This document shows positions 398 to 26,793 of a DNA stretch of 26,794 nucleotides, piece after piece; the first letter of the stretch is position 1; every line of letters starts with the position of its first letter. This DNA comes from Candidatus Eiseniibacteriota bacterium (GTDB taxonomy: Bacteria > Eisenbacteria > RBG-16-71-46): the NCBI GenBank assembly GCA_031364845.1, contig JANLWX010000068.1:1-26794 (forward strand), written 5' to 3'. A program made the position numbers and the translations under genes. The notes below the pieces were generated by a model, which was not told where the DNA came from, searched no databases, and saw only the letters and a list, made by a program, of their open reading frames with translations.

Positions 398-406
398 GTT
401 TGGCTC

Positions 407-490: not shown

Positions 491-501
491 GACCCGCGCG
501 C

Positions 502-642: not shown

Positions 643-661
643 TCTCGAGCGCTTTCGTCAC

Positions 662-3364
662 CTACTTCGACGCCACGGGCGCCAGGTTGCGCAGCCGCTC
701 GAACCAGTTGAGCGTGACCCGCACGCGGCGCAGCGGCGCGATATCGCGGTCCCGTTGCGTCTGGCGGGCGGCCACGATGGCGGAGCCATCCGGCGTGAGG
801 TCGTAGGATCCGACGATACCCCCCGGCCCGGCGGGGATCCGGATCCGGGCCCGAGGCCGCGAGGCCTCGATCGAGGACTCGCCGGCCGTGACCGACACCG
901 AGTAAAGCGAGTCGCCGAACCGGTAAAACAGCTCCATGCCCTGCCGCGACCATCTCGCCTCGGCGCCGCCCTGCGTGGAGATCTGCCACTTGCCCCCCGG
1001 CGCCGGGAAGGGCCGGACGTAGATCTCGGGCCGGCCCGATTCGCCCGACTGGTATGCGAGCCAGCGGCCGTCCGCGGAGAGCCGGGGACCGATCTCGAGC
1101 GTCGGCGTGTCGACCACGATTTCGTGCTCGGCTTCCTCGACGGCGCTCGTCTTCCACACCCCCCAGTTCCCGGCCACGTTCTGCGAGAAGAGAATGGTCG
1201 AGCCGTCGGGCGTGACCTGCCCGGGCACCTGAAGATTTGCCTTCGAGGAGAGCGCCTTCTCCTCGCCGGAACCATCCACCGGCTTCACGGTCAGCCGGCT
1301 CCCGGCGCCGCTCCTTGCCCCCGACGAGGAGTAGACGATGGACTTCCCATCGGGCGACCACACCGGACGCCAGTCCGCCCCATCCTCGTTGAAGGTCAGG
1401 CGCGTGCGCGTGCCCCTCGCCACGTCGAGCACCCACACGTCGGCTTCCGTGGCGGCACCGAGCGAGTAGGCGATGCGCCGGCCATCGGGCGACACGGCGG
1501 GCCCGCCGATCGCTCCAGGTTCAAGCAGGACCTGTTCCGCCCCGCCGGCCAGGGGAATGCGCACGAGGTCGCTCTGCTCGGCCGCCCCTTCTCCGCCGAA
1601 CATGGCGAGCATCGTGCCGTTCATCGAGACGTCGTACTGGGCGGCGCCTTCGGCGACGGAGGTTCGCAGCTTCTCGGCCAGCGGCACCGGGTTCCCCGTC
1701 ACCTCCATGCGCTCGACGTCGAACGGCAGCGCGAACAGCGTCTGCTCGTAGAGGTATAGGATGTGGCCGGTTGGGACATACCGCGGGTCGGTGCCGCCGT
1801 GGTGCAGCACCTTGCGCTTCCCGCTCTTGAGGTCGAGCACCTCGAGCCGCCCCTTCTCGAGGCCCGGGGCATTGGCGAACACCGTGAACAGCACGGCCGA
1901 CCGACCGGGAATCGCCCGCGGCCAGCGGTGCGAGATCTCGCCGGCGGTCGAGTCGAGCTGGGTGATCGCACGCGCCTCGCCCCCCGACTCGGAGACGCTC
2001 ATGAGCGGGCTGTTCGGGTTCGGGGCGTAGACGATGGTGCCCTCGTCGGTCCAGGTGCCGCCGCGGTTGAGTGCGACCGGCGCGAGGATGAGCGGCGCGC
2101 CGCCGCGGATCGAGACCTTCTTCAGCTCGCTGCGGGTGAAGAAGGCGATCCAGTCCCCGCCCGGCGAAAAGAACTGGTGGTAGGCCACCTCGGTGCCGGC
2201 GATCTCGCGCGGCGTCGGATCCGAGAGGTCCCGCACGTACATCAGGCGATCCTCGCCCTCGGGAACGAAGGCGATACGGTCGCCCTGCCGCGACAGCACG
2301 GCCGCGCTGCCGTAGCCCGAGAACAGCGGCTTCGGCGAGAGCTCCACGTCGAACTCCATGACCGGTGGCGGCGGCGCCGGGGGGCGCCACGGGGACCACG
2401 CCACCAGCGCGGCGAGGACGACCAGCGCCCCCGCCCCGACGAGCGGCAGGCGCGAGGCGCGGGGCACGGGCGAGAGAGGGGCCGCCGGCGACAGCGCCGC
2501 CTCGGCGCCCGCCGGGTTCGCAAGGTAGTCCTCGATCATCAGTCGCGCCTCGCCGATGTCGCGCAGGCGCCGCCGCGGATCCTTCTCGAGGCAGCGCCGG
2601 AGCAGGCGCATGACGGGCGCCGGGAGGTCCTTCGGCAGCCGGTCCCATTCGATCTCGCGCATCATCACCGCCGCCATCACCTCGGAGGCGGTCTCTCCGG
2701 TGAACGCCTGCTGCCCAGCGAGCATCTCGTAAAGCACGACGCCAAACGCCCAGATGTCCGCGCGCCGGTCCACCGGCTTACCCTTCGCCTGCTCGGGGCT
2801 CATGTAGCCCGGGGTACCGAGAATCACGCCCGCCAGCGTGTTCCTCGCCGTGACGGTCGGGGAGATGCTGATGCTCTCGCTGCCGGCGTTGCCCTCGAAC
2901 GCCTTGGCGAGCCCGAAGTCGAGCACCTTGACCACGTTGTCCTGCGTGATCATCACGTTCCCGGGCTTGAGGTCGCGGTGCAGCACGCCCTGGTCGTGCG
3001 CGGTTTCCATCGCATCGGCGATCTGGCGCGCGATGTCGAGCGCTTCGCCGAGCGGCACGGTGCCGCGCCCCATGCGCTCCGCCAGCGTCTCGCCGCGCAC
3101 GAGTTCCAGCACCAGGCAGTGAACGTCGCCGACCGACTCGAGACCGTAGATGGCGCCGATGTTGGGGTGGTTGAGCGAGGCCAGCACCTGCGCCTCACGC
3201 TGGAAGCGCGCCATCCGCTCGGCGTCGGAGCCGAACAACTCGGGAAGCACCTTCAGCGCCACGTCGCGGCCCAGCTTGCTGTCGCTCGCCCGCCACACCT
3301 CGCCCATCCCGCCGGCGCCCAGCTTCTCGCGAATCTCATAGTGGACGATGCGCGTCCCGATCAT
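662..3364 (-). CDS. Hanks-type Ser/Thr protein kinase with a transmembrane helix and extracytoplasmic TolB-like (PD40) beta-propeller repeats
   Basis: Kinase motifs GAGGMG, VALK, HRDLKPGN, DFG, GTPGYMSPEQ and DIWAFG are present, followed by TM segment LVGAGALVVLAALVAW and repeated SP(D/G)GxxIAY/F motifs. Start moved to ATG 3364 (MIGTRIVHY) because of the AAGGAG RBS. Confidence 0.95.
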   Translation of the reverse strand: MIGTRIVHYEIREKLGAGGMGEVWRASDSKLGRDVALKVLPELFGSDAERMARFQREAQVLASLNHPNIGAIYGLESVGDVHCLVLELVRGETLAERMGRGTVPLGEALDIARQIADAMETAHDQGVLHRDLKPGNVMITQDNVVKVLDFGLAKAFEGNAGSESISISPTVTARNTLAGVILGTPGYMSPEQAKGKPVDRRADIWAFGVVLYEMLAGQQAFTGETASEVMAAVMMREIEWDRLPKDLPAPVMRLLRRCLEKDPRRRLRDIGEARLMIEDYLANPAGAEAALSPAAPLSPVPRASRLPLVGAGALVVLAALVAWSPWRPPAPPPPVMEFDVELSPKPLFSGYGSAAVLSRQGDRIAFVPEGEDRLMYVRDLSDPTPREIAGTEVAYHQFFSPGGDWIAFFTRSELKKVSIRGGAPLILAPVALNRGGTWTDEGTIVYAPNPNSPLMSVSESGGEARAITQLDSTAGEISHRWPRAIPGRSAVLFTVFANAPGLEKGRLEVLDLKSGKRKVLHHGGTDPRYVPTGHILYLYEQTLFALPFDVERMEVTGNPVPLAEKLRTSVAEGAAQYDVSMNGTMLAMFGGEGAAEQSDLVRIPLAGGAEQVLLEPGAIGGPAVSPDGRRIAYSLGAATEADVWVLDVARGTRTRLTFNEDGADWRPVWSPDGKSIVYSSSGARSGAGSRLTVKPVDGSGEEKALSSKANLQVPGQVTPDGSTILFSQNVAGNWGVWKTSAVEEAEHEIVVDTPTLEIGPRLSADGRWLAYQSGESGRPEIYVRPFPAPGGKWQISTQGGAEARWSRQGMELFYRFGDSLYSVSVTAGESSIEASRPRARIRIPAGPGGIVGSYDLTPDGSAIVAARQTQRDRDIAPLRRVRVTLNWFERLRNLAPVASK

Positions 3365-3584: not shown

Positions 3585-6500
3585 TCAGCGAATCCTCGCG
3601 AGTCGAATCGTCGCCCGGGTGCCGGGCCCCACCAGGTGCGCGTAGTAGATCCCCGACGGCATCGATTCGCCGTTCGCGTCGCGCCCGTTCCATTCGGCGC
3701 TGTGCTGGCCGGCGGCGAGTTCGCGGTCCACGAGGGTCACCACCTTCTGGCCGGTGACGGAGAACACGTCGAGCGTCACCTTGCCTGCGCGCGCGAGTGC
3801 AAAGCCCACGCGAGTCGCATGCGTAAAGGGATTGGGCCGGGCCCACTCGAGGCCACTCTTCGCGGGCGCGGTCGGCGCCGGTGCCACGTCGACGAGACTC
3901 GGGGCGCAGCCGCAACGGCCGATCCCGACGGCGTCGATTTCGTTCCATCCCGGCACCGCGGGGGAATTGAATTCGACGCGCACCGCGTCGACCAGGTACT
4001 GCGGTTCCGGGAACACGACGTCGAACTTGCGCGAGACGGGCGGCGCGGGCGCTGCCACGGCGGACCACACCTCCTGGTAAACACCAGTGTTGCGATTGCG
4101 CACCGATACCTTGTCGAGCGCTCCGGGGTTCCAGGTCTCGACGACCTCCACGAAGTTCGTCGGCGCCGGCGTTGCGAACTGCAGATCGAGATACTCGCGC
4201 TGGCCATCGGCGGTGAGGCTGGCCCACACGGCCACCAAGTCGCCGTACGCCGGGTACGCGTCCGGCGCGCCCAGCGCTTGAACGGCCGAGTAGGTGTTGG
4301 CGTCGTACTGGCTGCTGAACCCGTGGATGCTCGAGGCCCATTGCACGCTCGGCACGAAGCTGCTGCTCACCATGGCTGGAATGGTGCGCGTCGTGACGCC
4401 GTTCGAGTCGGTGATCCGCAGTGTGACGTCATACGCTCCGGGTGTGGGACCGAGCACGACCCGCGGATTGCGGGCGTTCGCATTGCTGACCCACAGCACC
4501 TGGGGCGAGAACGACCACTGGTAGGTCGCCGGGCCGTTCACCACCGAGTAACTCTCGAATTGCAGCGTGTCGCACGGCCCGCTGACGGTTTGCTTGTCCA
4601 CCATGGGCTGCACCAGCGTGGTCGTCGAGTTCTCGAACAGGTCAACCTGCCAGAACCCCGATGCCGTGGCGAGCCGGAGCTTCTTATTCTTGTACTGGAT
4701 GCCGGCGCGCACCATGTGCGTCGTGAGCTGCGGCGGCAGACCCGTGTTGTAGGGGACCCAATCCGGCATGGTGTTGTTGCGATAGAACACCGCACCATAG
4801 TCGCCCACCAGGTAGATGCCGCCGTTCGTGCCGAGTTGGTGCACCATGTCCTGCAGCTGGACGCCGTTGAGCGTCGGGGTCGTCCAGTTCGTCCAGGTCG
4901 CGCCGCCGTCGGTGGTCTTGAACACCTTGTTGCCATCGGGACCGTTGCGGAAGCACCACCACAGCACGTTCGCATCGGTGCCGCTCAACGCAATCGTCGA
5001 GATCTTGCGCTGCTCGGGCGTTGGCCCCATAGGGTTCGTGGTGAACCCCCAGTTGCCGCCCCCGTTCGTCGACTTGCGCAATATCCCCTGCGTCTGCGTC
5101 CACACCGTGGCATAGATCACCAGCGGATTGCTGCGGCTGATGCGAATGTGCTGGCCGATGCTGGTCGTGTCCGAGAACGGCAACGCGTTGGGGAACGAAG
5201 CACCATTGTTCATGGTCACCGCCAGCTTGCGCTTCTGCCCGATCCAATACACGTTCGAGTAGCGGGGATCCCATTCCTGGTCACCGGTATCCATGCCGAT
5301 GTAGAGGCCATCGCCACGTTCGGCCGACTGGTACGGGACCGCCGGGATGACCGTGGACACCGTCGGCTGGTCCGGCGTCTCCGGAAACACGACACGCTGG
5401 CCACCCACCAAACCGTTCCCGAAATCCAGGCCCCAGTAGACCATGCGGCTGTTGGCGGGATTGATGTACCCGGTGGCCGGCTCTCCCCCGCCGACGACGA
5501 TGGAGTAGCCGTTCGGGTAGCCTTCGTACCAATAGCCGACCGCACCGTTGTGGTACCGGCCACCGGCGATGGCGTCTTCGTTCCACCCCTGCGCGAAGCC
5601 CCATATTTCGGTGCCGCGCAGTCCCTCGTTGCGCACCGAGACGTTCGCCTGGGTCGCCCAGAAGTCGCTCGAGTAGTTCATCCCTCCGTCGGAGGCCACC
5701 CACGCATCACCACCGATCGAACGCATCTCCTGGATGTCGGCGTGCATGTAGTCGGCCGTACAGGGATACCCCACCGTGACGTAGGTCAACCCGCCGTCCG
5801 TCGAGCGATAGAGGCCCGTCGTCCCGACGACGAGCTGGTTGGCATCGGTGTCGGAGGCCGCGATCGACAGGTCGTAGAAGCCCTGGCCATTCGTCATCGC
5901 GAGGGGGCCGGCCGTTGATACGCATTCCGCCAACGAGTCGAGGGGCGAATTCGAGGCCACGATCGTCCAGTGCTCACCAGAGTCACTGCTGCGAAGGACG
6001 CGCGGGCCATTCGGCGTGAGCAGGGCGACATAGATGCGATCGGGGTCCGCGGACGTGACCGTCATGCGAGCGCCGCCGTCGCTTCCCAGGATGGCGTCGC
6101 CGACCCAGCCACCGAGGCGCTTCGTGAACGAATTGCCGCTGTTGGTGGACTTCAGGAAGTCGATGCTGTCGCCCGCCGCGTTCCGTGCAAGGAAGTAGAC
6201 GATGCTCGCGTTCCCGGGCTTGAACGCGAGATCGAACGCAGGACGACTCAGGCCCGAACCCCAGCCCGACGCCGTCGTGTGCGGGATCATCGCGGTGGCG
6301 GTCCCCAGGAATATCGTGTCGGGTTTCGCCGGGTTGATGCGGATGAAGTTCGGGCTGAGCCCGGCGACACTCAGGATCGGTGTCCACGAGGCACCGCCGT
6401 TCGTGGTCTGGTGTACCCCTGTGCCGTTGGCGACGAAGACGATGTTCGGGTTGTTCGGGTGGATCGCGATGCCACCGACTGCGGACGAGAAGTTCGCGTA

Positions 6501-7160
6501 GAACTCACCGACCGGAGACCAGTGCAGGCCCTTGTCGGTGGACTTCGAAACCACTCCGGTCTCGGTGCCGCAGTAGAGGACGTTGTGGTCGCTGCGCGCG
6601 ACGTCGAAGGCGTACACGTTGGCCTGCGACACCTTTGCGTCGTGAGCCGGCCTCTCGTCGGCCGCCCAGTTGGTCGTGATCGGCCCGACATAATTCCAGG
6701 TCGTGCTCTGTGTACCGGGCGCGATGCGCGCCGCCTCGACGAGCGGCGTGGGCCCACTCGGTCGCGCGAAGTCGATGGAGCCGTCCGGCTGCACGTAGCG
6801 CTCGATTGACCGGCGCCAGCGCAGGTAACGCTCGGCCCACGGGTCATCGCGCTCGGCGCCCTTCTCAGCCGCTTCTTCGGCGGCGACAGGCGCCTCGCCG
6901 CGCGCCTCGCTCGTGTACCACTGCTGGTATTCCCGCTGCACCTCGAACACGTTCACGTCCTTGGGATCGCGGTCCAGCCAGTGTGCCCACTCCGGAGCGT
7001 CGTTCTCGTCCCGGCGCTCGGCTGAAACCGAGTGGTACGCCTCTCGCGCGTGGCGCGAGGGCGCCCTTTCCACGGCCGTCGCTGCGGACGCAAGGCCCAG
7101 CAGGGCAAGATACGCAAGGGCGACAACGAGAGCCGGACGATGTGGGGCGACCGATCGCAT
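3585..7160 (-). CDS. Secreted VPS10/BNR (Asp-box) repeat glycosyl-hydrolase-like protein with a PKD-like domain, a galactose-binding-like domain and a C-terminal FlgD/T9SS-CTD-like domain
   Basis: Signal peptide; many S/T-T-D/N-G-G-x-T/S-W Asp boxes; MHADIQ; PKD-like YQWSF...PGAYDVTLRITDSNG; C-terminal PNPF...VFSVTGQKVVTL...WNGRDANG..MPSGIYY. Confidence 0.88.
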   Translation of the reverse strand: MRSVAPHRPALVVALAYLALLGLASAATAVERAPSRHAREAYHSVSAERRDENDAPEWAHWLDRDPKDVNVFEVQREYQQWYTSEARGEAPVAAEEAAEKGAERDDPWAERYLRWRRSIERYVQPDGSIDFARPSGPTPLVEAARIAPGTQSTTWNYVGPITTNWAADERPAHDAKVSQANVYAFDVARSDHNVLYCGTETGVVSKSTDKGLHWSPVGEFYANFSSAVGGIAIHPNNPNIVFVANGTGVHQTTNGGASWTPILSVAGLSPNFIRINPAKPDTIFLGTATAMIPHTTASGWGSGLSRPAFDLAFKPGNASIVYFLARNAAGDSIDFLKSTNSGNSFTKRLGGWVGDAILGSDGGARMTVTSADPDRIYVALLTPNGPRVLRSSDSGEHWTIVASNSPLDSLAECVSTAGPLAMTNGQGFYDLSIAASDTDANQLVVGTTGLYRSTDGGLTYVTVGYPCTADYMHADIQEMRSIGGDAWVASDGGMNYSSDFWATQANVSVRNEGLRGTEIWGFAQGWNEDAIAGGRYHNGAVGYWYEGYPNGYSIVVGGGEPATGYINPANSRMVYWGLDFGNGLVGGQRVVFPETPDQPTVSTVIPAVPYQSAERGDGLYIGMDTGDQEWDPRYSNVYWIGQKRKLAVTMNNGASFPNALPFSDTTSIGQHIRISRSNPLVIYATVWTQTQGILRKSTNGGGNWGFTTNPMGPTPEQRKISTIALSGTDANVLWWCFRNGPDGNKVFKTTDGGATWTNWTTPTLNGVQLQDMVHQLGTNGGIYLVGDYGAVFYRNNTMPDWVPYNTGLPPQLTTHMVRAGIQYKNKKLRLATASGFWQVDLFENSTTTLVQPMVDKQTVSGPCDTLQFESYSVVNGPATYQWSFSPQVLWVSNANARNPRVVLGPTPGAYDVTLRITDSNGVTTRTIPAMVSSSFVPSVQWASSIHGFSSQYDANTYSAVQALGAPDAYPAYGDLVAVWASLTADGQREYLDLQFATPAPTNFVEVVETWNPGALDKVSVRNRNTGVYQEVWSAVAAPAPPVSRKFDVVFPEPQYLVDAVRVEFNSPAVPGWNEIDAVGIGRCGCAPSLVDVAPAPTAPAKSGLEWARPNPFTHATRVGFALARAGKVTLDVFSVTGQKVVTLVDRELAAGQHSAEWNGRDANGESMPSGIYYAHLVGPGTRATIRLARIR

Positions 7161-7207
7161 GCGAACTCCAATAGCAGAGGGATCCCGAGAATCAGGTCAG
7201 AGTGGCA

Positions 7208-7216
7208 AGCATATCA
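7208..7216 (-). promoter_or_regulatory. Putative extended -10 promoter (TGATATGCT) for the VPS10 gene
   Basis: TGnTAnnnT about 50 bp upstream of ATG 7160 in a short intergenic gap. Confidence 0.4.
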
Positions 7217-7241
7217 CCGGGGGGGCGCTCCTTGGCTGCCG

Positions 7242-8351
7242 TCAGTGAATCCGGTCGAACGACGCTCCGTTGAACTTGAACACGCCATTCCCTGCCAACC
7301 ACAGGTCGCCATGGCGATCCGTGTAGATACCCATGATGTCCTTGCTCGTCAGCCCGTCATTGGCCGAGTAGTTTTTCAATGACTTTCCGTCGTATCGCCA
7401 GGCACCACTCTCGACGGTGCCGAACCAGATGTTCGCGGCTCGGTCTTCTCCGATAGAGAACACCCGATGCAGCGTGGGGGAACCATCGGTCACGTCCCCA
7501 GGCTGAGGCAGCGCTCTCCCACCGTGCGGCCCCAACTTGCCAAGCCCCTTCTCCTGCGTGAATCGGGTGGTGGCGTGGCCATCGTGCAGGATGACTCCGA
7601 TCCCATTGTTTCCGATCCAGAGCTTCCCCTTGCTGTCCTCGAAGACGCAACGGACGTGAAGCCGACCGGTGCTGTCGTTGAGTCCCAGGCTCTTGTCATC
7701 GATGGTGGTGAAGGACTTGCCATCGTATCCGAACACCGCAGTGTAGGTTGCGAACCAGGGCCTCCCGCCTTTCCCTTTGGCAATGCCCGTCGTCGCATGA
7801 GCACTGACTCGAGCAGGATCCGCGGGGACAGGGTATGCCAGGTAGGTGAAGGTCTTTCCGTCGTACCGATACACACCCGGCAGCGCTTCGATCTCGGTTG
7901 CTCCCATCCCCCCGTCCTCCTTGAACCACAGGTCTTCAGTCCCGAGTTGCCAATCGTTCTTCGAAGTGTAGTTCCGGTTGGCGGGCGTGATGATCTTCTC
8001 CCCGTCAAAGCCGCTGAGTCCGAAGCCTCCCTCGAACCACACAATTCCGTTTCCATCTTCGTGGATCGACCTGATCTGGTTGTCGCTCAGGCCGTCTTTC
8101 TTCGTGAAATAGGTGAGACTCTTGCCGTCGAAGCGGCAGACACCATCGTCCCAACTTCCGAACCAGTAGTTGCCCTTGCTGTCCTCGAGGATGGAGCGCA
8201 CGGTCTCGAAGCGGAGCCGTGGCGGCGGATCGATGGCGATGTTGATCGGCTGCGATCTCGTCACGTCCTGCTTCGTCGCGCAGGAGGTTGCGGGAACGAG
8301 GGCAAGGATGATGACTGCTGCCAGAGCCCGACGCACTCGACCGCGCGTCAT
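7242..8351 (-). CDS. Two-component-regulator-propeller (Reg_prop) repeat protein, probable lipoprotein
   Basis: Repeats of I-x-EDSKGNxWFG...GVxRYDGKSxxxYTxxDGL. Hydrophobic signal ends in PATS-C. No kinase domain. Start placed at ATG 8351 (MTRGRVRR). Confidence 0.88.
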   Translation of the reverse strand: MTRGRVRRALAAVIILALVPATSCATKQDVTRSQPINIAIDPPPRLRFETVRSILEDSKGNYWFGSWDDGVCRFDGKSLTYFTKKDGLSDNQIRSIHEDGNGIVWFEGGFGLSGFDGEKIITPANRNYTSKNDWQLGTEDLWFKEDGGMGATEIEALPGVYRYDGKTFTYLAYPVPADPARVSAHATTGIAKGKGGRPWFATYTAVFGYDGKSFTTIDDKSLGLNDSTGRLHVRCVFEDSKGKLWIGNNGIGVILHDGHATTRFTQEKGLGKLGPHGGRALPQPGDVTDGSPTLHRVFSIGEDRAANIWFGTVESGAWRYDGKSLKNYSANDGLTSKDIMGIYTDRHGDLWLAGNGVFKFNGASFDRIH

Positions 8352-8425
8352 CACCAACGTTGAACCCACTCTGGAGCGAGAACTCCTACCGGGCTGTCCC
8401 GATCTTTCAGCTGTGTTTTCGACCG

Positions 8426-10237
8426 TCAACGGAGGCGAACAACCCGCTCCACCTGATGACCGCCCGGAAAGCGATAGTCAACGAAGTAGATACCGGGCGA
8501 TGATGGCTCGATCCACGCCACCGTGTGTGTTCCCGCCAAAAGGGCACCATGAACAAGCGACTTCACTTGGCGGCCCTGAAGGTCGACCACATTCAATTCG
8601 ACCGTAGCCTCATGTGGAAGGGTGAAGCTAACGCTCAGCGGGCCGAATCCTGGGTTGGGCGTGACGCGGGTCAACTCGAATCGATGCGACACACTACCTG
8701 ATACCGAGACGGGCTCGCTGATCACGACCGCTTCGCGTCCATCACGCCCGACGAGATGGTACCAATAGCCCCGATCGGCCGAGGCGCTCCGGTCAAGAGC
8801 CACTCGGATTCCACCCTCCGTTGAGTGTTCGGTCGCGATCATCACCCATGGTCCCGCGACGACATCGGCTCGCTCGACCCAGACCTCAGCCAAGCGTGTT
8901 GTATCGACAACCCAGCGGACACGCACGCCGGCGGGATCGCGCTGGGCGGTGAACAGCGTTATGAGGGTCGGCGTGGACGCGCAGCCTAGACCTCGCGCGC
9001 CGATCAATCCGCAGCCCGGTGCGTCGAGCAATGGGGAATTCGCGGTGAGGCTGACGCTGTCGTGATCCACATCGCAGAACAGCGGGTCGACTGACATGTC
9101 CTGCGGTGAAGGGGACATGCCGGCTACGGCGCCCGAATCGTTGGCGAACCAGTCGTTACAGGAAAGGTTCGGAAGTGCCGAACCCGATACGACCCTGAGC
9201 CCGTATTGATGATTGCCGTACGCGATGTTTCGCTCGAGGCGAGTGAGGCCACGGCTATCGGCCTCGAAGCCAGACTCCCCATTGCCGAACGACGTGTTGT
9301 TCTGGACGGTGACTTCGCTACCACCCGTCAACACGACGCCGCTACCACCTGAACGTCCGACGACGTTGCCCTCGACCGTTCCATCGCCAACCCGAATCGC
9401 ATCGAAGGTGGAGCCGAGAATCACGTTGTTCTTCACCAGGACGGCCCCATCCCATACCTCTATCCCTATACCGCAGGCGAGGAGTTGGTTGTCAGCGAAT
9501 TCAGCCGACCCCGCGGACGGCGAATGAGCGAACAACCCCACTCCCGAGCAGCCCTCGATGAGGTTGTTTCGCACCGTCAACTGGCCATCCTCGATCGCGG
9601 CGGAAAACCCATTGTCGAAGCCACGAATGACGTTTCCCTCGATGTGGCAGCCGTTGGATGTCCCGAGCGTGATCGCAACGCTCCCCGGACCGGTCATCGT
9701 GCTGTGCCTCATCGTGAGACCCGCATCGGCCGGGTAGTTGACGTTGATTCCGCCAAAGACTCGGCAGGAGTCGACTGAAACATAGTGGATCAGGCTGAGG
9801 GCCGGCTGCCCTCTCAAAGTGCAATCAATGAAGTGGAGGTTCCCGGGGCTGTTTCCTGCCCCTTGGGAGGCGACTCCGGAATCGATCTCGCATCCACGGA
9901 ACACCGTGTTCCCATAGTGTTCGATCGGGCCGAGCACGTGCAGACCGCGGAAGTTGAACTCGCCATCAAGGATGAGCATGCCGGGCAGGGTCGGAAGAAC
10001 GCCGAAAGGGCCCGGTACGCCAATGACCGTGAGAGCGCAGTCATCAATGTTGAGCGGAGACGGTTCCAAGTGGGCGCTCATCAGGACGGTGTCGATGAGC
10101 GCATGGGCGTGAATCGCCTCCACCACCGCCCGAACGGTCGGGAAGTCCCCAGGAACCGTGACCGTCATGGCATGACCCGGCGCGACCATGAACAACAACA
10201 CGAGAGTCGAAAAAGGAATCAGGATAGAGCGGCGCAT
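8426..10237 (-). CDS. Secreted right-handed parallel beta-helix (NosD/pectin-lyase-like) protein with a C-terminal CTD-like domain
   Basis: Signal peptide, VPGDFPTV start motif, GNxIxG/NNxIxG repeats, SCNDWFAN...DPLFC...SPLLDAPGCGLIGA, and C-terminal PNP...VVDLQGRQV...PGIYFV. RBS AGAGGAG precedes ATG 10237. Confidence 0.88.
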   Translation of the reverse strand: MRRSILIPFSTLVLLFMVAPGHAMTVTVPGDFPTVRAVVEAIHAHALIDTVLMSAHLEPSPLNIDDCALTVIGVPGPFGVLPTLPGMLILDGEFNFRGLHVLGPIEHYGNTVFRGCEIDSGVASQGAGNSPGNLHFIDCTLRGQPALSLIHYVSVDSCRVFGGINVNYPADAGLTMRHSTMTGPGSVAITLGTSNGCHIEGNVIRGFDNGFSAAIEDGQLTVRNNLIEGCSGVGLFAHSPSAGSAEFADNQLLACGIGIEVWDGAVLVKNNVILGSTFDAIRVGDGTVEGNVVGRSGGSGVVLTGGSEVTVQNNTSFGNGESGFEADSRGLTRLERNIAYGNHQYGLRVVSGSALPNLSCNDWFANDSGAVAGMSPSPQDMSVDPLFCDVDHDSVSLTANSPLLDAPGCGLIGARGLGCASTPTLITLFTAQRDPAGVRVRWVVDTTRLAEVWVERADVVAGPWVMIATEHSTEGGIRVALDRSASADRGYWYHLVGRDGREAVVISEPVSVSGSVSHRFELTRVTPNPGFGPLSVSFTLPHEATVELNVVDLQGRQVKSLVHGALLAGTHTVAWIEPSSPGIYFVDYRFPGGHQVERVVRLR

Positions 10238-10247
10238 GAGATCTCCT

Positions 10248-10508
10248 CTAGGAGCAATTTCCCAATAGCACTGCAACCGCGTGGGAGTCACCGCTGTGCG
10301 TCACCGCGAGATCCGGCCGACCATCCTCGTTCAGATCCGCGATGGCCACCGACGTCGGAGACTGGCCTGACTCGAACAGGTAGTACGGTGCTTTGAAGAG
10401 GGGGCTCTCGTGAAGGATCGCGCTCGATGCCAGCATCCCTGCGACAACCAAGCACACCGCGAAGACAAAGTGGCTCGAAGTACACGTGAGCATTCGGGGA
10501 CGCGGCAT
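10248..10508 (-). pseudogene. N-terminal remnant of a secreted FG-GAP/VCBS repeat protein
   Basis: GGAGG RBS, signal peptide, then one FG-GAP repeat (GQSPTSVAIADLNEDGRPDLAVT...VAVLLGN). It stops at CS* where G-D-G would normally continue, 10 bp before the next start codon. Confidence 0.75.
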
Positions 10509-10556
10509 CGGCCTGACCTCCGTTGAGACGGACTCTTGAAGCGCTCTCTGCCCGCT

Positions 10557-10565
10557 ACCATATCA
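10557..10565 (-). promoter_or_regulatory. Putative extended -10 promoter (TGATATGGT) overlapping the upstream stop codon
   Basis: TGnTAnnnT about 50 bp upstream of ATG 10508, in the same CCGGTGATATG context as at 7210-7220. Confidence 0.35.
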
Positions 10566-12296
10566 CCGGAGAACTGCGATGCGGCTCGATGCAGTCTGCC
10601 CCGCTTGAGCGATTTGGATCATGTAGACGCCCACGGGAAGCCGCTCGAGTTTGACCGACCCGCGGCCCGAACTAGTGGGCGCTATCTCCCGCGTCGAGAT
10701 CCTGCGACCGCTCACGTCGAACACGACGAGCTGAGCGGAACCATTCGGAGGCATGGACCACATGACCTCTGGTCGACCGACCACAGGATTTACTGCTCGA
10801 ATCTGGAGCGAGGCGCTGGGGCCAGCCTCAACTGCGGTGGTTGGCGGCGCTAGTAGTCCGTTCTCCTGAATACGTTGAGCATAGATGTCGGTCGCCGAGC
10901 CCCCACGATAATCGGTCCACGTCATGATCGATCCGCCGGCGCCATCGGTCGCTGCTGCGAACAGGAAGGTCTGTGCGCCCTGGGCTGGAAGTTCCTGATG
11001 GCCGGGCGCGCTTGAGACCGAGGCCCCGTTGATCGGCCAGCGCCCGTCGATTTGCCCGTTCGACCAAACATGCTGGGCGTAAATGTCATCGTTGTCGTTC
11101 CGAAAGTCGTCCCACGCGAGCACTGCACCACCCGAGCCATCGGAGACCATGGCAACGCGCCACTGCGGCTTGTCGGCCGTACAGATGCCGAGCCCATTGA
11201 CCGGCCACTGAGGATCCAGTGCACCGTTGGCGAGCACGTGCGTCGCGAAGACGTCGGCCATCCATTGAGCATCAATGCCACTGGTTCGCCGATCGTCCCA
11301 CGCCACGATCGCGCCACCATTGCCGTCCGAAACGAGCGACGGATACCACTGAGTACCAACTGCAGAGCAGAGCGTCCGCCCGTTCACGGGCCATATCGGA
11401 TCGACGGAGCCGTTCGGAAGCACGTGGTGCGCTTGAACGTCCTTGTAACCATCGCTTCCCCCGTCATGCCAGGTGACGATCATGCCGCCAGCACCGTCCG
11501 ACACCGGCATTGGACTCCCCGCGCTGGGTCTCGTGCAGACCGTGCCTCCCCCGGCGAACGAGCCGTTGGCGCGCACGCGAAGCGCCGTGACGCGGCGTGA
11601 CTGCACCCAAGTTAGGAAACAACCGTGAGCACCGTCGGAAACCAACGTCGCCTCTGGCGAATAACTTGAACCCGAAGCTGCGATGATTCCCTGAGCGGGC
11701 CAGAAGGGATCGAGTGCGCCATCAGACAGCATGTGCTGGAGGTAGACGCTGAACGTTCCCAAGCTGTACTGGCTCCAGGTCGCCAGGATGCCCCCGGATC
11801 CATCCGAGATGACGGCCAGCCCAAGGGTGTTGGATGAAGTCACGGCCGCACCGTTCGCTGGCCATTGCGGATCTATTGTGCCGTTGGCGAACACATGCTG
11901 CGCGTAAATCTTGTTAGCGCCAAATCCATAGCGCACCCACACCATCAACACGCCGCCCGCCCCGTCGGAGACCAGTTGGGCGCCGCCTTGCGGGCCCAGA
12001 CCTTCGGAGATCATCAGTCCATTCGACGGCCACAGCGGATCGACCTCGCCACCGGAGAGAACGTGTTGCAGGTAGACGTCCGGGATCGGGTTCTCTGGAT
12101 CATCGGGCAGGTCGTTACGACGATCGTCCCATGCGATGAACACACCGCCTGACCCGTCGGCGACGATCACCGAGTTGCCTTGATCCTGAGAAGCCGTACT
12201 CACTGGAAGATTGGCCGTGGGGTCGGATGGCCATGATGCGAGAGCCGGCTGAGCTAGCGTAATTAGTGAGGCAACGCCGATGATCGCAGTTCGCAT
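10563..12296 (-). CDS. Secreted repeat protein (8 x SDGxGG..W.D.R..DIYAQ repeats, probable beta-propeller) with a C-terminal CTD-like domain
   Basis: Signal peptide ending PALA; eight (A/S/T)DG(A/S/N)(G/H)G repeats and six DPxWPxNG-like motifs; C-terminal NP...VFDVSGRRI...LPVGVYMI...IAVLR. Confidence 0.88.
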   Translation of the reverse strand: MRTAIIGVASLITLAQPALASWPSDPTANLPVSTASQDQGNSVIVADGSGGVFIAWDDRRNDLPDDPENPIPDVYLQHVLSGGEVDPLWPSNGLMISEGLGPQGGAQLVSDGAGGVLMVWVRYGFGANKIYAQHVFANGTIDPQWPANGAAVTSSNTLGLAVISDGSGGILATWSQYSLGTFSVYLQHMLSDGALDPFWPAQGIIAASGSSYSPEATLVSDGAHGCFLTWVQSRRVTALRVRANGSFAGGGTVCTRPSAGSPMPVSDGAGGMIVTWHDGGSDGYKDVQAHHVLPNGSVDPIWPVNGRTLCSAVGTQWYPSLVSDGNGGAIVAWDDRRTSGIDAQWMADVFATHVLANGALDPQWPVNGLGICTADKPQWRVAMVSDGSGGAVLAWDDFRNDNDDIYAQHVWSNGQIDGRWPINGASVSSAPGHQELPAQGAQTFLFAAATDGAGGSIMTWTDYRGGSATDIYAQRIQENGLLAPPTTAVEAGPSASLQIRAVNPVVGRPEVMWSMPPNGSAQLVVFDVSGRRISTREIAPTSSGRGSVKLERLPVGVYMIQIAQAGQTASSRIAVLR

Positions 12297-15188: not shown

Positions 15189-16100
15189 TCATGCGGACGC
15201 ATGATGATCGTTCTGCGGGCATCCTGGGAAGGCGTTTTCGAGCGACTCGCCCCCAAGGCCCGCTTCGTAGCGCTGCTCGAACTGAATCGGTGAGAGATAG
15301 TCGATCGACGAGTGGCGCCGTCGAGTGTTGTACCAGCCCTCGATGAAGTTGAATACGCGCGGTCCCGCCACCGCCTGCGACGGGAAGCGATGCTTCGCGA
15401 GCAACTCGCACTCAAGCGTCGCGAAGAACGACTCGCACATCGCGTTGTCGAAGCAGTCGCCGACCGATCCCATCGACGGCCTCACGCCGGCATCGCGGCA
15501 TCGGGAACCGAACGCAATCGACGTATATTGACAGCCCTGATCCGAGTGGTGGATTACGTCCTTGGGCCGCCGGCGCGCCAACGCCATCTCCAGCGCGTCG
15601 AGAATCAGCTCGGTCCGCAGGTGATTGGCCATCGCCCAGCCGACGATGCGTCGGCTGAACACGTCGAGTACCACCGACAGGAACAAGAACCCTGCCCACG
15701 TCGGGATGTAGGTGATGTCGGCGACCCACAGCTTGTTCGGCGCGTCGGCAACGAACTCGCGCTTCACGAGATCGGGCGCGGGCCGCGCGTCGCGGTCGCG
15801 AATCGTGGTCCAGCAACCCTTGCGACGGGTGACGCCGACCAGTCCGGCCTTACGCATCAACCGGGCAACACGATTGTGCCCGACCGCGAGACCCTCGGCG
15901 TGCAGGTCCTTCAGGATGCGGATGCTGCCGTAGTTCCCATCCGAGTTCAGATGATGGCTGCGAATGCGCTCGAGCAACCGCTCGTTCGCTCGTGCGCGTG
16001 TCGAGGGTTCGCGGAGCTTCCATGCGTAGTATCCGCTGGAGGAGACACCCAGCAGACGGGACATCATCGCGATGCGGTGCTCGGCCTGATGGGCGCTCAT
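15189..16100 (-). CDS. IS3-family transposase OrfB (rve/DDE integrase core)
   Basis: [63 protein letters not shown] overlap with the orfA stop. Confidence 0.95.
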
Positions 16101-16411
16101 GAACCCGAATGCTTCTTCGGGGTCGACTGCGTCTCCTGCGCGAACCAGGCCGCGGCTTTTTTCAAAATCTCCCGCTCTTCACGCAGCGTCCGGTTCTCGC
16201 GGCGGAGCTGGCGCAGCTCTTCGCGCTCTTCGCTCGTCAGTCCGTCCTTGCGACTGCCCTCGTCGAGATCGGCCTGGCGGACCCAGTTCCGAATCGACTG
16301 CGCGGTGCACTCGAACTACTTGCCCAGCTCCTCGGGCGTCTGCCCGGCACGGACCAACTCGATCAGGCGGCGGCGAAACTCAGGCGGGTATGGCGGCTTG
16401 CTCTTCGGCAT
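16097..16411 (-). pseudogene. IS3-family transposase OrfA (HTH) with an in-frame TAG at codon 32
   Basis: [51 protein letters not shown]...[14 protein letters not shown] at 16316-16318, native TGA at 16097-16099. Confidence 0.9.
16156..16162 (-). promoter_or_regulatory. A6G slippery site for OrfA-OrfB -1 frameshift
   Basis: AAAAAAG within TTG AAA AAA GCC. The -1 frame ([22 protein letters not shown]) runs into OrfB. Confidence 0.7.
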
Positions 16412-16465
16412 CGTGGTGACCTCCGACCCAAAGGGTCAGGTGTCCACGAAACCGGGTCAACTCCA

Positions 16466-18850: not shown

Positions 18851-21454
18851 TCATCGCACGATCGCTCCACGCGCCGTGCGCATTTCATCCCCAACAAGCA
18901 GCCGCATGACGTACATGCCCGTACTCAATCGGCAACTCGTCGGCATTACCGCTCGATGGGCGCCCGGGCCAAACGCACCGACGTCCTGACGCCAGACCAT
19001 CCGACCGGCCAAATCGTACACCTCCAGAAGGGCCGGCCGATCGTCCGCCAGCGTGAATGCTATCGCGGGCGTTCGGGCGCTCGGATTTGGAGTGAAGCCC
19101 TCAAGGCGCACCCCCAGATCAAGTGGCACCATGATTGTGACCTCACCAACGACGCTCCCATGGTGGGTCCTCAGTGCATACGAATGCTCATGCCCAGGTT
19201 CGACCGTATCATCGTCGTAGAACAGACGACTTGCCCCATCCTGCACGGGCTTACCAATGAATAAGTACGGCCCTGTGCCCGATCTGCGGACGACCTCAAG
19301 ATCGCCAGCGCGAGTGTCAGAATGCCAGCTCAGCCGAACATGGCGCGGTAACGCCGCCCACTCCGCGACACTTGCAACGACCGAAGTGGGCTGCTCAGGC
19401 CAGGTCAGAAACCACATGTCTCCCAGGGGAAGTCCGCCGTACTGAGTCCCCCCAAAGATCACCATGCGATCTCGACGTGTGTCGTAAGACGCCGCATGCC
19501 CATAGCGAGCAGGGGGCGACGCCGCTCCGCTCCAAGACACCGGACTCAAATCAGCCTGGAGCTGCCACGGGGACTCGAACACGTCACCGTATGCTGAAGA
19601 CGCCAATCCGCCGAAGAAGAGGGTTCGTCGCCGATGAGGGTCATTGGCGACCGAATGGTAAGCTCGCTGAAAGGTCGAATTCGTGACACGCCATTCCAGC
19701 GAATCACCTAGCCGCAATTCCCAAGCGTCGTTAAGCGGAGTGTTGGGACTGAGTTCACCCAGCCCGCTAAACACGAGTAAACGATCGTGCTCCGGATCAT
19801 AAAATCCCGCATGTCCCATTCGATTCCGTGGCAGAGTTCCGGCCGGCGTCAGCTGTTGCCAGGACAATCCATTCGACAAAGAGAGAGCCCAGACATCATT
19901 CATGTAATGGCCTGCATTGTTCCCGCCCATGACAATCACACGATCTCGCTTGCTATCGTATGCAGCAACGAAGTTGTTTCGGCCCGTTGGAGTAGGTCCC
20001 GCCGCTTGCAGCAACGTCCAGGTGGGACTGCTACCGAGGCTCAGAGCCCACACATCCATGAGGTAGGCGCCCGCGTACCCGCCGATGAGCAGCATCCTTG
20101 ACCGCAAGGGATCGTGGATGCACTGATGCCCGAAGCGAGATTGTGGACGATTGCCGCTGAAATAGGTCGCCTCCCACTCTTGTTCCTCGCCCATGGCGAG
20201 TTGCCAAATCGTTCCAGGTGGGTCGGCGACTGCGCCGAACACGTCGCGCGCGCCACCGTAGAGGACGAATCGATCGGCTTCTGGGTCGTAGATCGCCGAT
20301 GCAGCGTAGCGCGGAACTGGAGCACCGACGTTACCCACCCAATGCGGCGGATCGGTCTGAACATCAAGTACTGGGGTATCGGACAGATTGCGATTGGCAG
20401 CTTCATCGCGTCCGCCATATGCCACCAGCCTCCTCCTCACCGGATCGAAGATTGCGGCCAGAGAGTGACGCAGCGATGGGGTCGTCCCTCCAGGTGATAC
20501 CGGGGTCCATGATGTGCCTTGATCGAGTTCGAGTCTCCACACGTCGGCCATGGATGTCGTCCCGTAGCCTCCGAAAGTCAGCATTGAACGGGTCGCTGAA
20601 TCGTAGACCGCTGCATGAAAGAAACGAGAAGGAGGAGACACACCGGAGGGCGTTACGGGTGCGAGCTGGGTCCAACCCGGATCATCCACCAGGGAGAGGC
20701 GCCAGACTTCACCATTCGCTGTTCCGTTCAGGTTGCCGCCATAGAGAATGGCGCTGTCTGTGACAGGGTCGTAGATCATCGAAGCACCATCACGCTGACT
20801 GGGCGCGGCCCCGACTACCTCGAGCAGTGTCCACGTTGGTGGCGAAGTGGACAGTTCGAGCTCCCACAAGTCGTTCATAAAACCACTCACTGGATTGTAT
20901 CCGCCAAATACGATAAGGCGATGGCGCACTGGATCGTAGCAGCCGCTCGGGGCGATACGGGCAACTGGTGGGGTCCCTTGAGTAACGACATTGCGATATT
21001 GAGGCACCGCGTTGAGAGGGATCATCACCGTTGCATTCGTCACAGTTCCATCGCTCCCGCCAAACAGCATCAGCGCATCCGCCGCGGGGACGTGAACTCC
21101 GAGCGCACCCGTGATCGTCGAGAACGGCGAACCGGTCACGGGAGTCGACGTCCATTGCCCGCTTGTCAGATCGAGCGAGAATCGTTTCTCGCGAGTCCCG
21201 AACGCGCCTCCGTAGACGACCATCATTCGGCGGGCAGGGTCGAGGATGGCCACGTGACCGTAGCGCCCCTGACTGAGATCGTTGTAAGGACCGTTGGATG
21301 CTAGTTGAGTCCATGTAGGCAGTGCGTCGGCAAGAGAGACTCGAGAGACGACTTGGCATGTCACAAGCAAACACAAGGCGACCGCTGTTGTGCGCAAAGA
21401 GGAATACAACTCGACATGAGCGATGCGCTCTCGAACCACTCCGGGCGGTTCCAT
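18851..21454 (-). CDS. Secreted Kelch-repeat (double beta-propeller) protein with a C-terminal CTD-like domain
   Basis: About 12 repeats of R..H...YDPxRxR...(F/Y)GG....NDxWxL; C-terminal PNPS...VYDLAGRMV...LSTGMYVMRL...AIVR. Start uncertain: ATG 21454 overlapping the upstream stop as TGATG, or TTG 21397 giving the cleaner signal peptide MRTTAVALCLLV. Confidence 0.88.
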   Translation of the reverse strand: MEPPGVVRERIAHVELYSSLRTTAVALCLLVTCQVVSRVSLADALPTWTQLASNGPYNDLSQGRYGHVAILDPARRMMVVYGGAFGTREKRFSLDLTSGQWTSTPVTGSPFSTITGALGVHVPAADALMLFGGSDGTVTNATVMIPLNAVPQYRNVVTQGTPPVARIAPSGCYDPVRHRLIVFGGYNPVSGFMNDLWELELSTSPPTWTLLEVVGAAPSQRDGASMIYDPVTDSAILYGGNLNGTANGEVWRLSLVDDPGWTQLAPVTPSGVSPPSRFFHAAVYDSATRSMLTFGGYGTTSMADVWRLELDQGTSWTPVSPGGTTPSLRHSLAAIFDPVRRRLVAYGGRDEAANRNLSDTPVLDVQTDPPHWVGNVGAPVPRYAASAIYDPEADRFVLYGGARDVFGAVADPPGTIWQLAMGEEQEWEATYFSGNRPQSRFGHQCIHDPLRSRMLLIGGYAGAYLMDVWALSLGSSPTWTLLQAAGPTPTGRNNFVAAYDSKRDRVIVMGGNNAGHYMNDVWALSLSNGLSWQQLTPAGTLPRNRMGHAGFYDPEHDRLLVFSGLGELSPNTPLNDAWELRLGDSLEWRVTNSTFQRAYHSVANDPHRRRTLFFGGLASSAYGDVFESPWQLQADLSPVSWSGAASPPARYGHAASYDTRRDRMVIFGGTQYGGLPLGDMWFLTWPEQPTSVVASVAEWAALPRHVRLSWHSDTRAGDLEVVRRSGTGPYLFIGKPVQDGASRLFYDDDTVEPGHEHSYALRTHHGSVVGEVTIMVPLDLGVRLEGFTPNPSARTPAIAFTLADDRPALLEVYDLAGRMVWRQDVGAFGPGAHRAVMPTSCRLSTGMYVMRLLVGDEMRTARGAIVR

Positions 21455-22101
21455 CAGCGCTCCCGCTCGAACACCACGTGCATCGCCGCTTCTGACGTCT
21501 TGTGACTCCGGACCCGATATCCGAGCGCGTGCAGATCGAGGCCCGACCACAGGTTCTCCCCCGAGCCGAGGACCACGGGTGAGATCGCGACGTGCATCTC
21601 ATCGACGAGCCCGCCGCGGAGGTATTGTCGAATCGTCTCCGCGCCGCCCCCGATCCGGATGTCCTTCCCCGCAGCGGCGTCGCGAGCGCGCTTCAGCGCC
21701 TCGTGGATCCCATCCGTCACGAAGTGGAAGGTCGTTCCGCCTGCCATCTCGAGTGTCTTGCGCGGGTGGTGCGTGAGCACGAAGACCGGCACATGATAAG
21801 GCGGCTCATCGCCCCACCAGCCCTTCCACTCGTCGTCCGGCCACGGGCCGCGGATCGGGCCGAACATGTTGCGCCCGAGGATCCACGCACCGAGATTTTC
21901 CGTGCCCCGGAGTGCGAACTCCGCGTCGACGCCGGTGCTCGCGCCTTCCTTGCCGAACATGGATTGGAAAACCTGCGTTGGCCGGAACCAGCCGTGGAGT
22001 TCCTCACCGCCCACGCCGAGCGGATTCTCAAGGTCCTGGCGCGGGCCCGCGCCATACCCGTCGACCGAGACGGTGAATGCATTCACGCGCAGCTTGCTCA
22101 T
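21454..22101 (-). CDS. Dihydrofolate reductase family protein (RibD C-terminal domain)
   Basis: TVSVDGYGAGP, ILGRNMFGP, WWGDEPPYHVPVFVLTH, IGGGAETIRQYLRGGLVDEMH..ISPVVLGSG. RBS GGAAGGAG before ATG 22101. Confidence 0.93.
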   Translation of the reverse strand: MSKLRVNAFTVSVDGYGAGPRQDLENPLGVGGEELHGWFRPTQVFQSMFGKEGASTGVDAEFALRGTENLGAWILGRNMFGPIRGPWPDDEWKGWWGDEPPYHVPVFVLTHHPRKTLEMAGGTTFHFVTDGIHEALKRARDAAAGKDIRIGGGAETIRQYLRGGLVDEMHVAISPVVLGSGENLWSGLDLHALGYRVRSHKTSEAAMHVVFERER

Positions 22102-25515: not shown

Positions 25516-26793
25516 CTAGCCCACGGGCAAGTCACGGAACTGCGGATGTTCCACGACCGCCGCGCGCCACGCATCATCGCCAGCGGCTCCCAGCGGGATC
25601 TGCGCATCGCTGCGCTGCCAGCGGCTCAGCCACTCGGCGCCCAGCAATTCGCGCCCCGTGCGCGTGGCGGCCAGGGGTGACAGGCCGATCGTCGTCTCCA
25701 CTTTCGGTCCGGTCGCGCGCCCCTTCGCCACATGGAATCCTGCGGCTAGCATGGCGGCGCGCACTTGCGTGGAGTACGTGTACGTGAACAACTCCGTGTG
25801 CTTGTGCTCGCACACGTCCGCCAGCTCGCGGAATGCCGCCAACGTCCACAGGTCGCTGTCGACCTTGAACGAGAACGGGTCGAAGAAGATGATGTCCGGC
25901 GGCGGCGCATCGAACTTTCGAGTCGCGAAGTCGCCCGGCATCAGCAACCAGTCGATGGCGCCCGAAGCGCTCAGCCACTGGTTCTTCGCCAGCAGCGCGT
26001 GTGGTGCGGCATGGCGGAGATGTTTGAACCACAGCGGATGCCGGAGTGCCAGCCGCAGCGAGTCGAGGTCGTTCTCGAAACTCACCAGCACCAGCCGGCG
26101 CTTGCGCTCCTCACCCATCGCTTCGACGGCATGGATGGTCGCCATCGCATTGGTGCCCGCCCCGAGGCCGACATCCCACACCACGAGTGGATGCACGTCG
26201 ACTTCCGCCAGCCGCTCGATAAGCCGCGACTGCTCGACGTAGAGCGAGCGGGCCTCTTCAGCGGGGTCATTCACGGAATGCATCGTTTCGCCGGAGACCG
26301 TATCGCGAATGCGCCCGACATCGCCGCCAACCACGACCTCGTAGCGTCCACGCCGCATGGCGCGGGCCAATTGCTGAGCCTTCGTGACGCGGGTCACCTT
26401 GTTGCCATAATTGTCGCGCGCATCGAGCACTTGGCGCTGCGCCTGATAGAACTCGATCCACGTGCCCGCGAGCACATGCTCGCGCATGCTGCGCATGAGG
26501 TGCATGTAGAAGTGCAGGTTGTGCAGTGCGAGCAACTGAGTGGCCTGCGAATCCCATGTGCGCTGAAGGTGGAAGAGATAGGCGATTGAGTAGGTCCGGC
26601 AGGTGTAGCACGTGCAGGCCGGGTCCAACGGACCCTCACGATCACGGTAGGCAGCGCGCTTCAAGGATCGCCGGCCGATGCTCGTGAACACGACGCCCTG
26701 CTGGGCCAGCGACGTCGGCAGGATGCAATCGAACATGTCGACGCCGCGATGCACGGCTTCGAGCAGATCGCGCGGCGTGCCGACGCCCATCAG
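25516..26793 (-). CDS. tgt: tRNA-guanine transglycosylase (C-terminal part) fused to an MnmC/MnmD-type SAM-dependent methyltransferase; 5' end outside the window
   Basis: TGT part: LMGVGTP, GVDMFDCILPT, Zn site CTCYTC...HNL. MTase part: MHSVNDPAEEA, VWDVGLGAGTN, SFEND, GDF, FFDPFS.....LWT, FTY.....VRAAMLAAGF. One continuous reading frame. Confidence 0.9.
   Translation of the reverse strand: MMGVGTPRDLLEAVHRGVDMFDCILPTSLAQQGVVFTSIGRRSLKRAAYRDREGPLDPACTCYTCRTYSIAYLFHLQRTWDSQATQLLALHNLHFYMHLMRSMREHVLAGTWIEFYQAQRQVLDARDNYGNKVTRVTKAQQLARAMRRGRYEVVVGGDVGRIRDTVSGETMHSVNDPAEEARSLYVEQSRLIERLAEVDVHPLVVWDVGLGAGTNAMATIHAVEAMGEERKRRLVLVSFENDLDSLRLALRHPLWFKHLRHAAPHALLAKNQWLSASGAIDWLLMPGDFATRKFDAPPPDIIFFDPFSFKVDSDLWTLAAFRELADVCEHKHTELFTYTYSTQVRAAMLAAGFHVAKGRATGPKVETTIGLSPLAATRTGRELLGAEWLSRWQRSDAQIPLGAAGDDAWRAAVVEHPQFRDLPVG

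Follow-up and report, generated by a model that had tools for sequence, protein, structure and literature searches.

The window analysed here, a 26,794-nucleotide stretch of a Candidatus Eiseniibacteriota bacterium (assembly GCA_031364845.1, contig JANLWX010000068.1; the entire contig C127 in our numbering, in which G, C and L denote genomes, contigs and loci), ends in a gene that joins a variant tRNA-guanine transglycosylase (TGT) to an MnmC2-related methyltransferase in one polypeptide. By its sequence, the gene is a member of the catalogued TGT/MnmC2 fusion class and would work like a TGT plus an MnmC2. We propose, with moderate confidence, that the two domains couple the insertion of preQ1 (7-aminomethyl-7-deazaguanine) into RNA with N-methylation of the inserted base, as an add-on to the queuosine (Q) pathway. 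More tentatively, a second TGT subfamily retargeted to another RNA site may, together with its own methyltransferase, write N-methyl-preQ1 there. The fusion, its residues, its distribution and the selection acting on it are established by the results that follow.

The minus-strand frame runs from position 26793 to a TAG at 25516–25518 with no internal stop, encodes 425 residues and runs off the end of the contig. Its missing 5' portion is on contig C112, which overlaps the window: the first 141 bases of C112 are identical to the last 141 of the window and occur on no third contig. The C112 frame has an ATG start and adds 245 residues, giving the full gene that had been sought and a fusion of about 670 residues. 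The preliminary description had seen the C-terminal half of a TGT joined to a methyltransferase in one open reading frame (ORF). The join stands, and the TGT piece in the window is only the C-terminal third, with residues 1–118 matching positions 233–350 of 357 of the Pfam TGT profile (E 1.7e-43). Alignment bore out the nucleophile motif and intact Zn ligands described there, as well as a short linker. The methyltransferase, described as of the MnmC2 type and lacking an FAD oxidase domain, matches PF05430 at residues 298–370 (E 2.6e-12) and the MnmC2 family NF033855 at residues 168–370 (76.4 bits); no match to the MnmC1 FAD oxidase was found in the 425-residue frame, which stops 55 residues past the MnmC2 match. 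The features of the gene in the window are as follows.

25516–26793, minus strand: 3' part of the TGT-methyltransferase fusion gene (425 residues plus stop); the first 245 codons lie on C112 at 3–875, minus strand
26440–26793, minus strand: variant TGT domain, C-terminal third, residues 1–118 (Pfam TGT, E 1.7e-43; alignment to PDB TGTs)
26728–26730, minus strand: Asp22, catalytic nucleophile by alignment to E. coli and Zymomonas mobilis TGT (Z. mobilis Asp280; role from PMC5699537)
26701–26724, minus strand: altered RNA-contact segment, in which Ile24, Ser28 and Gln31 replace Z. mobilis Val282, Arg286 and Arg289
26521–26616, minus strand: Zn site Cys60, Cys62, Cys65 and His91 by alignment to E. 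coli and Z. mobilis TGT (68/68 fusions)
26353–26439, minus strand: inter-domain linker, residues 119–147, variable in sequence and of lowest model confidence in homologue P0002
25519–26352, minus strand: class I S-adenosylmethionine (SAM)-dependent methyltransferase of an MnmC2-related subfamily, residues 148–425
26149–26175, minus strand: SAM-binding motif I, residues 207–215 (motif from PMC3527978)
25879–25881, minus strand: Asp305, proposed amine-activating base (E. coli MnmC Asp178, Aquifex Asp193; 39/39 fused domains)

The fusion gene is genuine. Contigs from a second sample (X2) span positions 25825–26545, including the linker, with zero letter differences, and both PF01702 and PF05430 are present in all 120 homologues among the matches listed, most of which are about 670 residues long. 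A chimera, or a lost stop codon unique to this assembly, which the preliminary description had considered, is thus ruled out by the two-domain homologues, the in-frame loci described below and the identical second-sample contigs. In the structural model of homologue P0002, each domain is confident (pLDDT 89.9) and the orientation of the domains is not fixed (pTM 0.61); as a model, it neither favours nor opposes the hand-over of one RNA between the domains.

A scan of species genomes with the methyltransferase alignment confirmed 592 of the best 600 stretches, of which 80 were kept. With one relative's locus added, 76 of the 81 loci were fused to a TGT in one frame, two were cut by contig ends, one was in frameshifted pieces and two were stand-alone. 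Carriers include Steroidobacterales, Ca. Eisenbacteria, Bdellovibrionota, Verrucomicrobiota, Ca. Binatia and Leptospirales. One carrier (L081) is the named isolate Leptospira ognonensis, a saprophyte, and has a typical MnmC2 in addition. The fusion is rare in the source lineage, where two of the 61 genomes searched carried it (the source genome and G027, 89% identity). In quick trees with midpoint roots, as were all trees here, the window methyltransferase and the G027 TGT domain fell among Steroidobacterales sequences together with a Ca. Eisenbacteria copy, a placement that fits horizontal acquisition, the donor aside. There was no fusion match in the plasmids or viral contigs searched, and an Atlas search gave PF05430 clusters only. 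Where fusion genes are named, they are annotated plainly as Tgt.

To characterize the TGT domain, 68 near-complete fused domains and 31 canonical copies of the same genomes were compared, leaving aside 13 of the 81 loci that were partial, frameshifted or unfused; positions are numbered as in Z. mobilis TGT unless E. coli is stated. All 68 fused TGTs keep Asp102, Ser103, Gln107, Asp156, Cys158, Gln203, Met260, Asp267 and Asp280, the segment Gly229–Glu235 with Leu231, Ala232 and Val233, and the four Zn ligands (Cys-x-Cys-x2-Cys...His), and their base pocket is more uniform than that of the canonical copies. Cys158, Leu231, Ala232 and Val233 are given as preQ1 determinants in the relevant passages of PMC5699537. 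Inspection of the substrate pocket, as first proposed for this gene, therefore found a preQ1-type pocket intact in the gene itself and in 68/68 fusions. The RNA-contact surface gave a different result: Arg286 is present in none of the 68 fused domains versus 31/31 canonical copies, Arg289 in 6/68 versus 31/31, Val282 in 1/68 versus 31/31 and Lys52 in 23/68 versus 30/31, and in an overlapping set of 29 fusions both Arg286 and Arg289 are absent throughout (0/29 each). Basic residues were gained near the lost arginines, with Arg at E. coli position 288 in 68/68 and Arg or Lys at 283 in 62/68, so that the RNA surface looks changed, not lost. In a tree that used 36 of the 68, a branch supported at 100 separated the fused domains from the rest, and we class the variant TGTs, on these sequences, as a distinct subfamily. 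Full-length fusions scored about 409–462 bits against TIGR00430, above its equivalog cut-off of 306.75, and the window's partial TGT domain alone scored 132.2 bits. The substitution K285D (E. coli Lys285) abolishes TGT activity; we dropped Lys285 as evidence, as this position is Asp in 37/68 fusions, yet Lys in only 2/31 canonical copies.

The methyltransferase domain has the class I fold of 3VYW and 2QY6, with motif I, the ribose-binding Glu and the catalytic D-x-F. Glu169, motif I, Glu240, Asp305 and Tyr338 are kept in 39/39 fused domains and Lys364 in 38/39; apart from motif I, these residues correspond to MnmC2 Asp26, Glu101 and Asp178, Aquifex Tyr225 and Lys236. Motif I, the amine-activating Asp and the other catalytic roles have been described for MnmC2 (PMC3527978, PMC3648344), and with these residues kept, N-methylation of an amine on RNA would be the expected chemistry. 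The domain is not a typical MnmC2: its score of 76.4 bits fails the NF033855 equivalog cut-off of 136, and a long, supported branch splits the fused domains from typical MnmC2. Two residues conserved in MnmC2, Pro182 and an aromatic residue at position 24 (PMC3648344), are also changed. E. coli MnmC Pro182 corresponds to Phe309 in the window and mostly to Phe, Tyr or Ser in the fusions, Pro not being among the three commonest residues there in the 39 fused domains, and the Phe24 position is Ser167 in the window and Ser in 39/39. Because the protein lacks one feature that defines Tgt and two that define MnmC2, we file it under neither canonical Tgt nor MnmC2.

The distribution of the two halves showed a strong, though not strict, link between variant TGT and methyltransferase. 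In G081 and G093, the halves are split to unlinked loci, yet both are kept and nest within the fused clade. Among 80 further genomes, two tgt matches occurred in nine, namely eight with the fusion plus G173. In 54 Oligoflexia-like genomes, a stand-alone methyltransferase of the subfamily was present in nine of the ten that have only a stand-alone variant TGT, compared with six of the 16 lacking a variant TGT; single tgt copies were assigned by score, and the motif was inspected in two. Fetching 18 extra or lone tgt copies from Oligoflexia-like genomes gave 16 of the variant type, 14 stand-alone and two with a truncated methyltransferase. A Fisher test on co-occurrence was dropped, given the kinship of the genomes and the fact that genes joined in a fusion necessarily occur together. 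The stand-alone variant TGT of G214 lies on C36 (L225), and that of G173 (L175 2996–4270, C37) has Asp at the Glu235 position and forms the deepest branch of the variant clade. Six loci of Oligoflexia-like genomes (L150, L151, L153, L157, L159 and L160) carry stand-alone sister methyltransferases near leuS, and in G098 a sister methyltransferase is convergent with queF. These sister methyltransferases have retained the MnmC2 proline, and they may be the true MnmD of these bacteria.

We then examined the Q pathway beside the fusion. The source genome contains a canonical tgt, queA, queF, queC, mnmE and mnmG. For a wider survey, we profiled 51 carriers (G027 and 50 of the 80 loci, the latter picked for longer contigs and a broad taxonomic range). 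Each of the 51 had at least two tgt matches, so that the second, canonical tgt for which profiling had been suggested is general among them; queA was present in 50/51, queF in 45/51 and mnmG in 47/51. The fusion had been put forward as an alternative to QueA/QueG maturation. Such a replacement is ruled out by the canonical tgt, queA, queF and queC of the source genome and by queA in 50/51 carriers: the fusion is an add-on to the Q pathway, not a substitute. In the source genome, queG (G000:C227 6426–7424, minus strand) contains a TAA in frame downstream of the Fe-S motifs, which could reflect either a genuine break in the gene or a fault of the assembly; resting on one unverified assembly letter, it was not taken as support for replacement. 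Neither queH nor a match to MnmM was found in the source genome. ARAGORN gave no tRNA-Cys and no tRNA-Trp there, and absences in this assembly call for caution. The canonical tgt of the source genome (G000:C33, L001 1468–2670, minus strand) carries Leu in place of Cys158 and Trp in place of Ala232, as do those of G001, G002, G006, G014 and G027 (L178–L182), making 6/6 examined. This base pocket is unusual, and the genomes have queA and queF where tested.

Fusions also persist in genomes without detected MnmEG. In a set of 72 genomes around G104, mnmG was detected in none of the 18 listed first (Ca. Binatia-like genomes G103, G104 and G111–G126) and in 53 of the other 54, and mnmE was below cut-off in all six tested of the 18. 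Four of the 18 carry intact fusions, with pairwise ratios of nonsynonymous to synonymous substitution rates (dN/dS) of 0.16–0.32 for the methyltransferase and 0.16–0.20 for the TGT, and queA is retained in 18/18. From the gene content, an MnmD would be without its known substrate in these carriers. This persistence under purifying selection counts against two unrelated wobble activities that happen to be fused, the conservative alternative of the preliminary description, which we still carry in the form of an ordinary MnmD (see below).

On the coupled reading, for which catalysis, substrate and product are predictions, the variant TGT would replace a guanine in an RNA loop by preQ1 via the covalent Asp280 intermediate, a first step suggested by its intact residues, with preQ1 drawn from the cell's own pool. 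In a second predicted step, the tethered MnmC2-like domain, using SAM and Asp305, would carry out N-methylation of the 7-aminomethyl group at its primary amine. The expected product is 7-(methylaminomethyl)-7-deazaguanosine (preQ1 + 14 Da; m/z 326.15, from 312.13 for preQ1 plus 14.02), whose methylated amine would no longer be free for QueA. Arg286 and Arg289 presumably read U35 as part of the U33-G34-U35 recognition surface. Since the fused TGT lacks Arg286 and mostly lacks Arg289, position 34 of GUN tRNAs is not assured as the target. The route to N-methyl-preQ1 suggested at the outset thus stays chemically plausible, with pocket and Asp kept, and the altered arginines leave its placement at the wobble position in doubt. 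With Arg286 lost and Arg289, Val282 and Lys52 mostly changed, an RNA site other or wider than U33-G34-U35 is the likelier target, and we put it forward tentatively; candidates may include other G34 tRNAs, another tRNA position or a non-tRNA loop. That the target is the same GUN tRNAs, in competition with QueA, seems to us rather unlikely from the residues.

Several observations weigh against coupled insertion and methylation of preQ1 in RNA. The link between the halves is imperfect: the subfamily methyltransferase occurs in 6/16 of the Oligoflexia-like genomes without variant TGT, no subfamily match was found in G173 or G214 despite their variant TGTs, and the fusions of G231 and G233 (L227, L228) end after the N-terminal half of the methyltransferase, in frames of 567 and 525 residues. 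In G221 (loci L226 on C43 and L231 on C3), the sole tgt found is of the variant type, with queA present and no tgt within about 5 kb; if this genome is not incomplete, the variant can serve GUN tRNAs. The U35 role of the two arginines is assumed here, reportedly going back to Xie et al. in 2003. The mnmG-less carriers are related metagenome-assembled genomes and represent roughly one event. Among the four, where tested, queF was not found in G103 and G104, nor queC in G104, G111 and G117, and a YhhQ-type transporter was present only in G117, so that preQ1 would have to be supplied by assumed salvage, which their canonical tgt must need too. All-against-all ORF clustering of neighbours at 95 loci gave lineage-specific clusters only, with none conserved across phyla. 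Finally, 38/51 carriers and the source genome have no clear MnmC2-family gene apart from the fused or split domain, and the presence of mnmG in 47/51 carriers, together with mnmE and mnmG but no MnmM match in the source genome, fits an ordinary MnmD role.

An ordinary MnmD, converting nm5(s2)U34 to mnm5(s2)U34 and fused to a second TGT through shared anticodon-loop substrates with the activities independent, is in our view improbable. It agrees with the MnmC2 fold and catalytic residues, with the gene counts just given (the only PF05430 gene in the source genome, 38/51 and 47/51 carriers), with the 6/16 genomes in which the subfamily occurs without variant TGT, and with the relevant passages of Jaroch et al., which class such proteins as MnmC2 fusions. 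It sits poorly with the score of 76.4 bits against a cut-off of 136 and the long supported branch, and with intact genes under purifying selection in four genomes without detected mnmG or mnmE. The domain also coexists with another MnmC2-family gene in 13/51 carriers, a typical MnmC2 (87–116 bits) in four and sister paralogues in nine more, and the keeping of a second TGT with a perfect pocket is left unexplained.

We likewise consider it unlikely that no N-methyl-preQ1 arises in RNA because the variant TGT has another target or serves chiefly to bind or remove a deazaguanine, as a reader, eraser or salvage enzyme, while the methyltransferase acts on another amine of that target. Such a role would explain the clade-wide change of the RNA-contact surface (Arg286 in 0/68 and 0/29) and the occurrence of each half alone, and TGT paralogues have switched targets before, with DpdA acting on DNA and, in the part of the literature consulted, a structure pairing the TGT-fold protein Cap10 with a modified protein. 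Retention of the two catalytic aspartates, of the Zn site and of the dimer-interface positions speaks against it, however, and the new basic residues beside the lost ones (E. coli 288 and 283) suggest a changed rather than a lost RNA surface. DNA-metabolism or defence neighbours did not recur among the clustered loci, and the plasmids and viral contigs searched gave no match. That free preQ1 is methylated first and then inserted as N-methyl-preQ1, or serves as a sink once methylated, is the least probable explanation, given the kept tRNA-binding Lys and base-stacking Tyr of MnmC2 and a tight, not enlarged, TGT pocket of the Cys158/Val233 type.

The surroundings of the fusion gave no common pattern. 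In 107 loci, four tRNA genes and one transfer-messenger RNA gene were found, with no pattern. Upstream of the fusion on C112, no sigma-70-type promoter or terminator site was found; three consecutive genes in that upstream region (L004 1047–4527, minus strand) encode an alpha/beta-hydrolase-like protein, a protein with a caspase domain (PF00656) and one without a Pfam match, and together they resemble a conflict or signalling module. Elsewhere in the window, insertion-sequence transposase genes (integrase core and HTH_21, IS3-like) lie at 15189–16419, and the ORF list shows several large proteins of a secreted type, whose sorting-like C-terminal domains resemble one another, at 3585–12296 and 18851–21550 on the minus strand.

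In bacteria, the known role of TGT is to open a single pathway, which leads from preQ1 to queuosine at G34 of the tRNAs for Asp, Asn, His and Tyr. If coupled insertion and methylation holds, bacteria of at least six phylum-level groups would possess a second branch with the same precursor, a different base and probably a different site. It would add an RNA nucleoside and a TGT target absent from the literature searched, convergent with the phage DNA mark mdPreQ1. A TGT with naturally changed loop specificity would reveal the residues that recognize UGU and could widen TGT-based RNA labelling. Plain annotation as Tgt means that pathway surveys miscount fusion genes; if the domain is only an MnmD, the outcome is a minor annotation fix.

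The pairing of TGT with MnmC2 is already catalogued in print, and N-methyl-preQ1 in RNA does not appear in the literature searched, as far as the sources covered extend. Our searches, with subscription papers and bioRxiv supplements outside their scope, gave no study of the activity of the fusion and no N-methyl-preQ1 in RNA, nor did the parts consulted of a 2026 review (PMC13602947). The fusions of Jaroch et al. (10.1101/2023.12.21.572861) have, in the passages of that preprint seen here, the same pair of PF01702 and MnmC2-type domains without MnmC1. One sentence there names TGT as an MnmC2 fusion partner, with nothing tested in those passages, which make no mention of an altered TGT, an extra canonical tgt or MnmEG-less carriers; the genome set described in them excludes such carriers by design.

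Compared with bacterial Tgt (Z. mobilis 1Q2R, E. coli, TIGR00430), the P0002 model has 43% identity and a TM-score of 0.95 over the target, and the fusion shares the catalytic Asp102/Asp280, the preQ1 pocket, the Zn site and a score above cut-off. It differs in the changes at Arg286, Arg289, Val282 and Lys52, its separate clade, its status as an extra copy beside the canonical gene and its C-terminal methyltransferase. Unlike MnmC2/MnmD, the methyltransferase domain has a sub-cut-off score, forms its own subfamily, is changed at the Pro182 and Phe24 positions and is kept without detected MnmEG; unlike bifunctional MnmC, the fusion has no C-terminal FAD oxidase MnmC1. Archaeal TGT and DpdA, which insert preQ0, have Val-Val where the fusions have Leu231-Ala232 (68/68), and the PUA domain of archaeal TGT had no match in the 3' part of the fusion. 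The nearest parallel in logic is the phage pair DpdA and DpdM, which, according to passages of the preprint describing it (10.1101/2023.04.13.536721), makes mdPreQ1 in DNA, so that N-methyl-preQ1 is a natural base. In that account DpdM has a DUF3109 fold with a Cys-rich metal motif, unrelated to the Rossmann-fold PF05430 domain of the fusion, yet the proposed logic and base would be the same, with insertion of preQ1 followed by its N-methylation.
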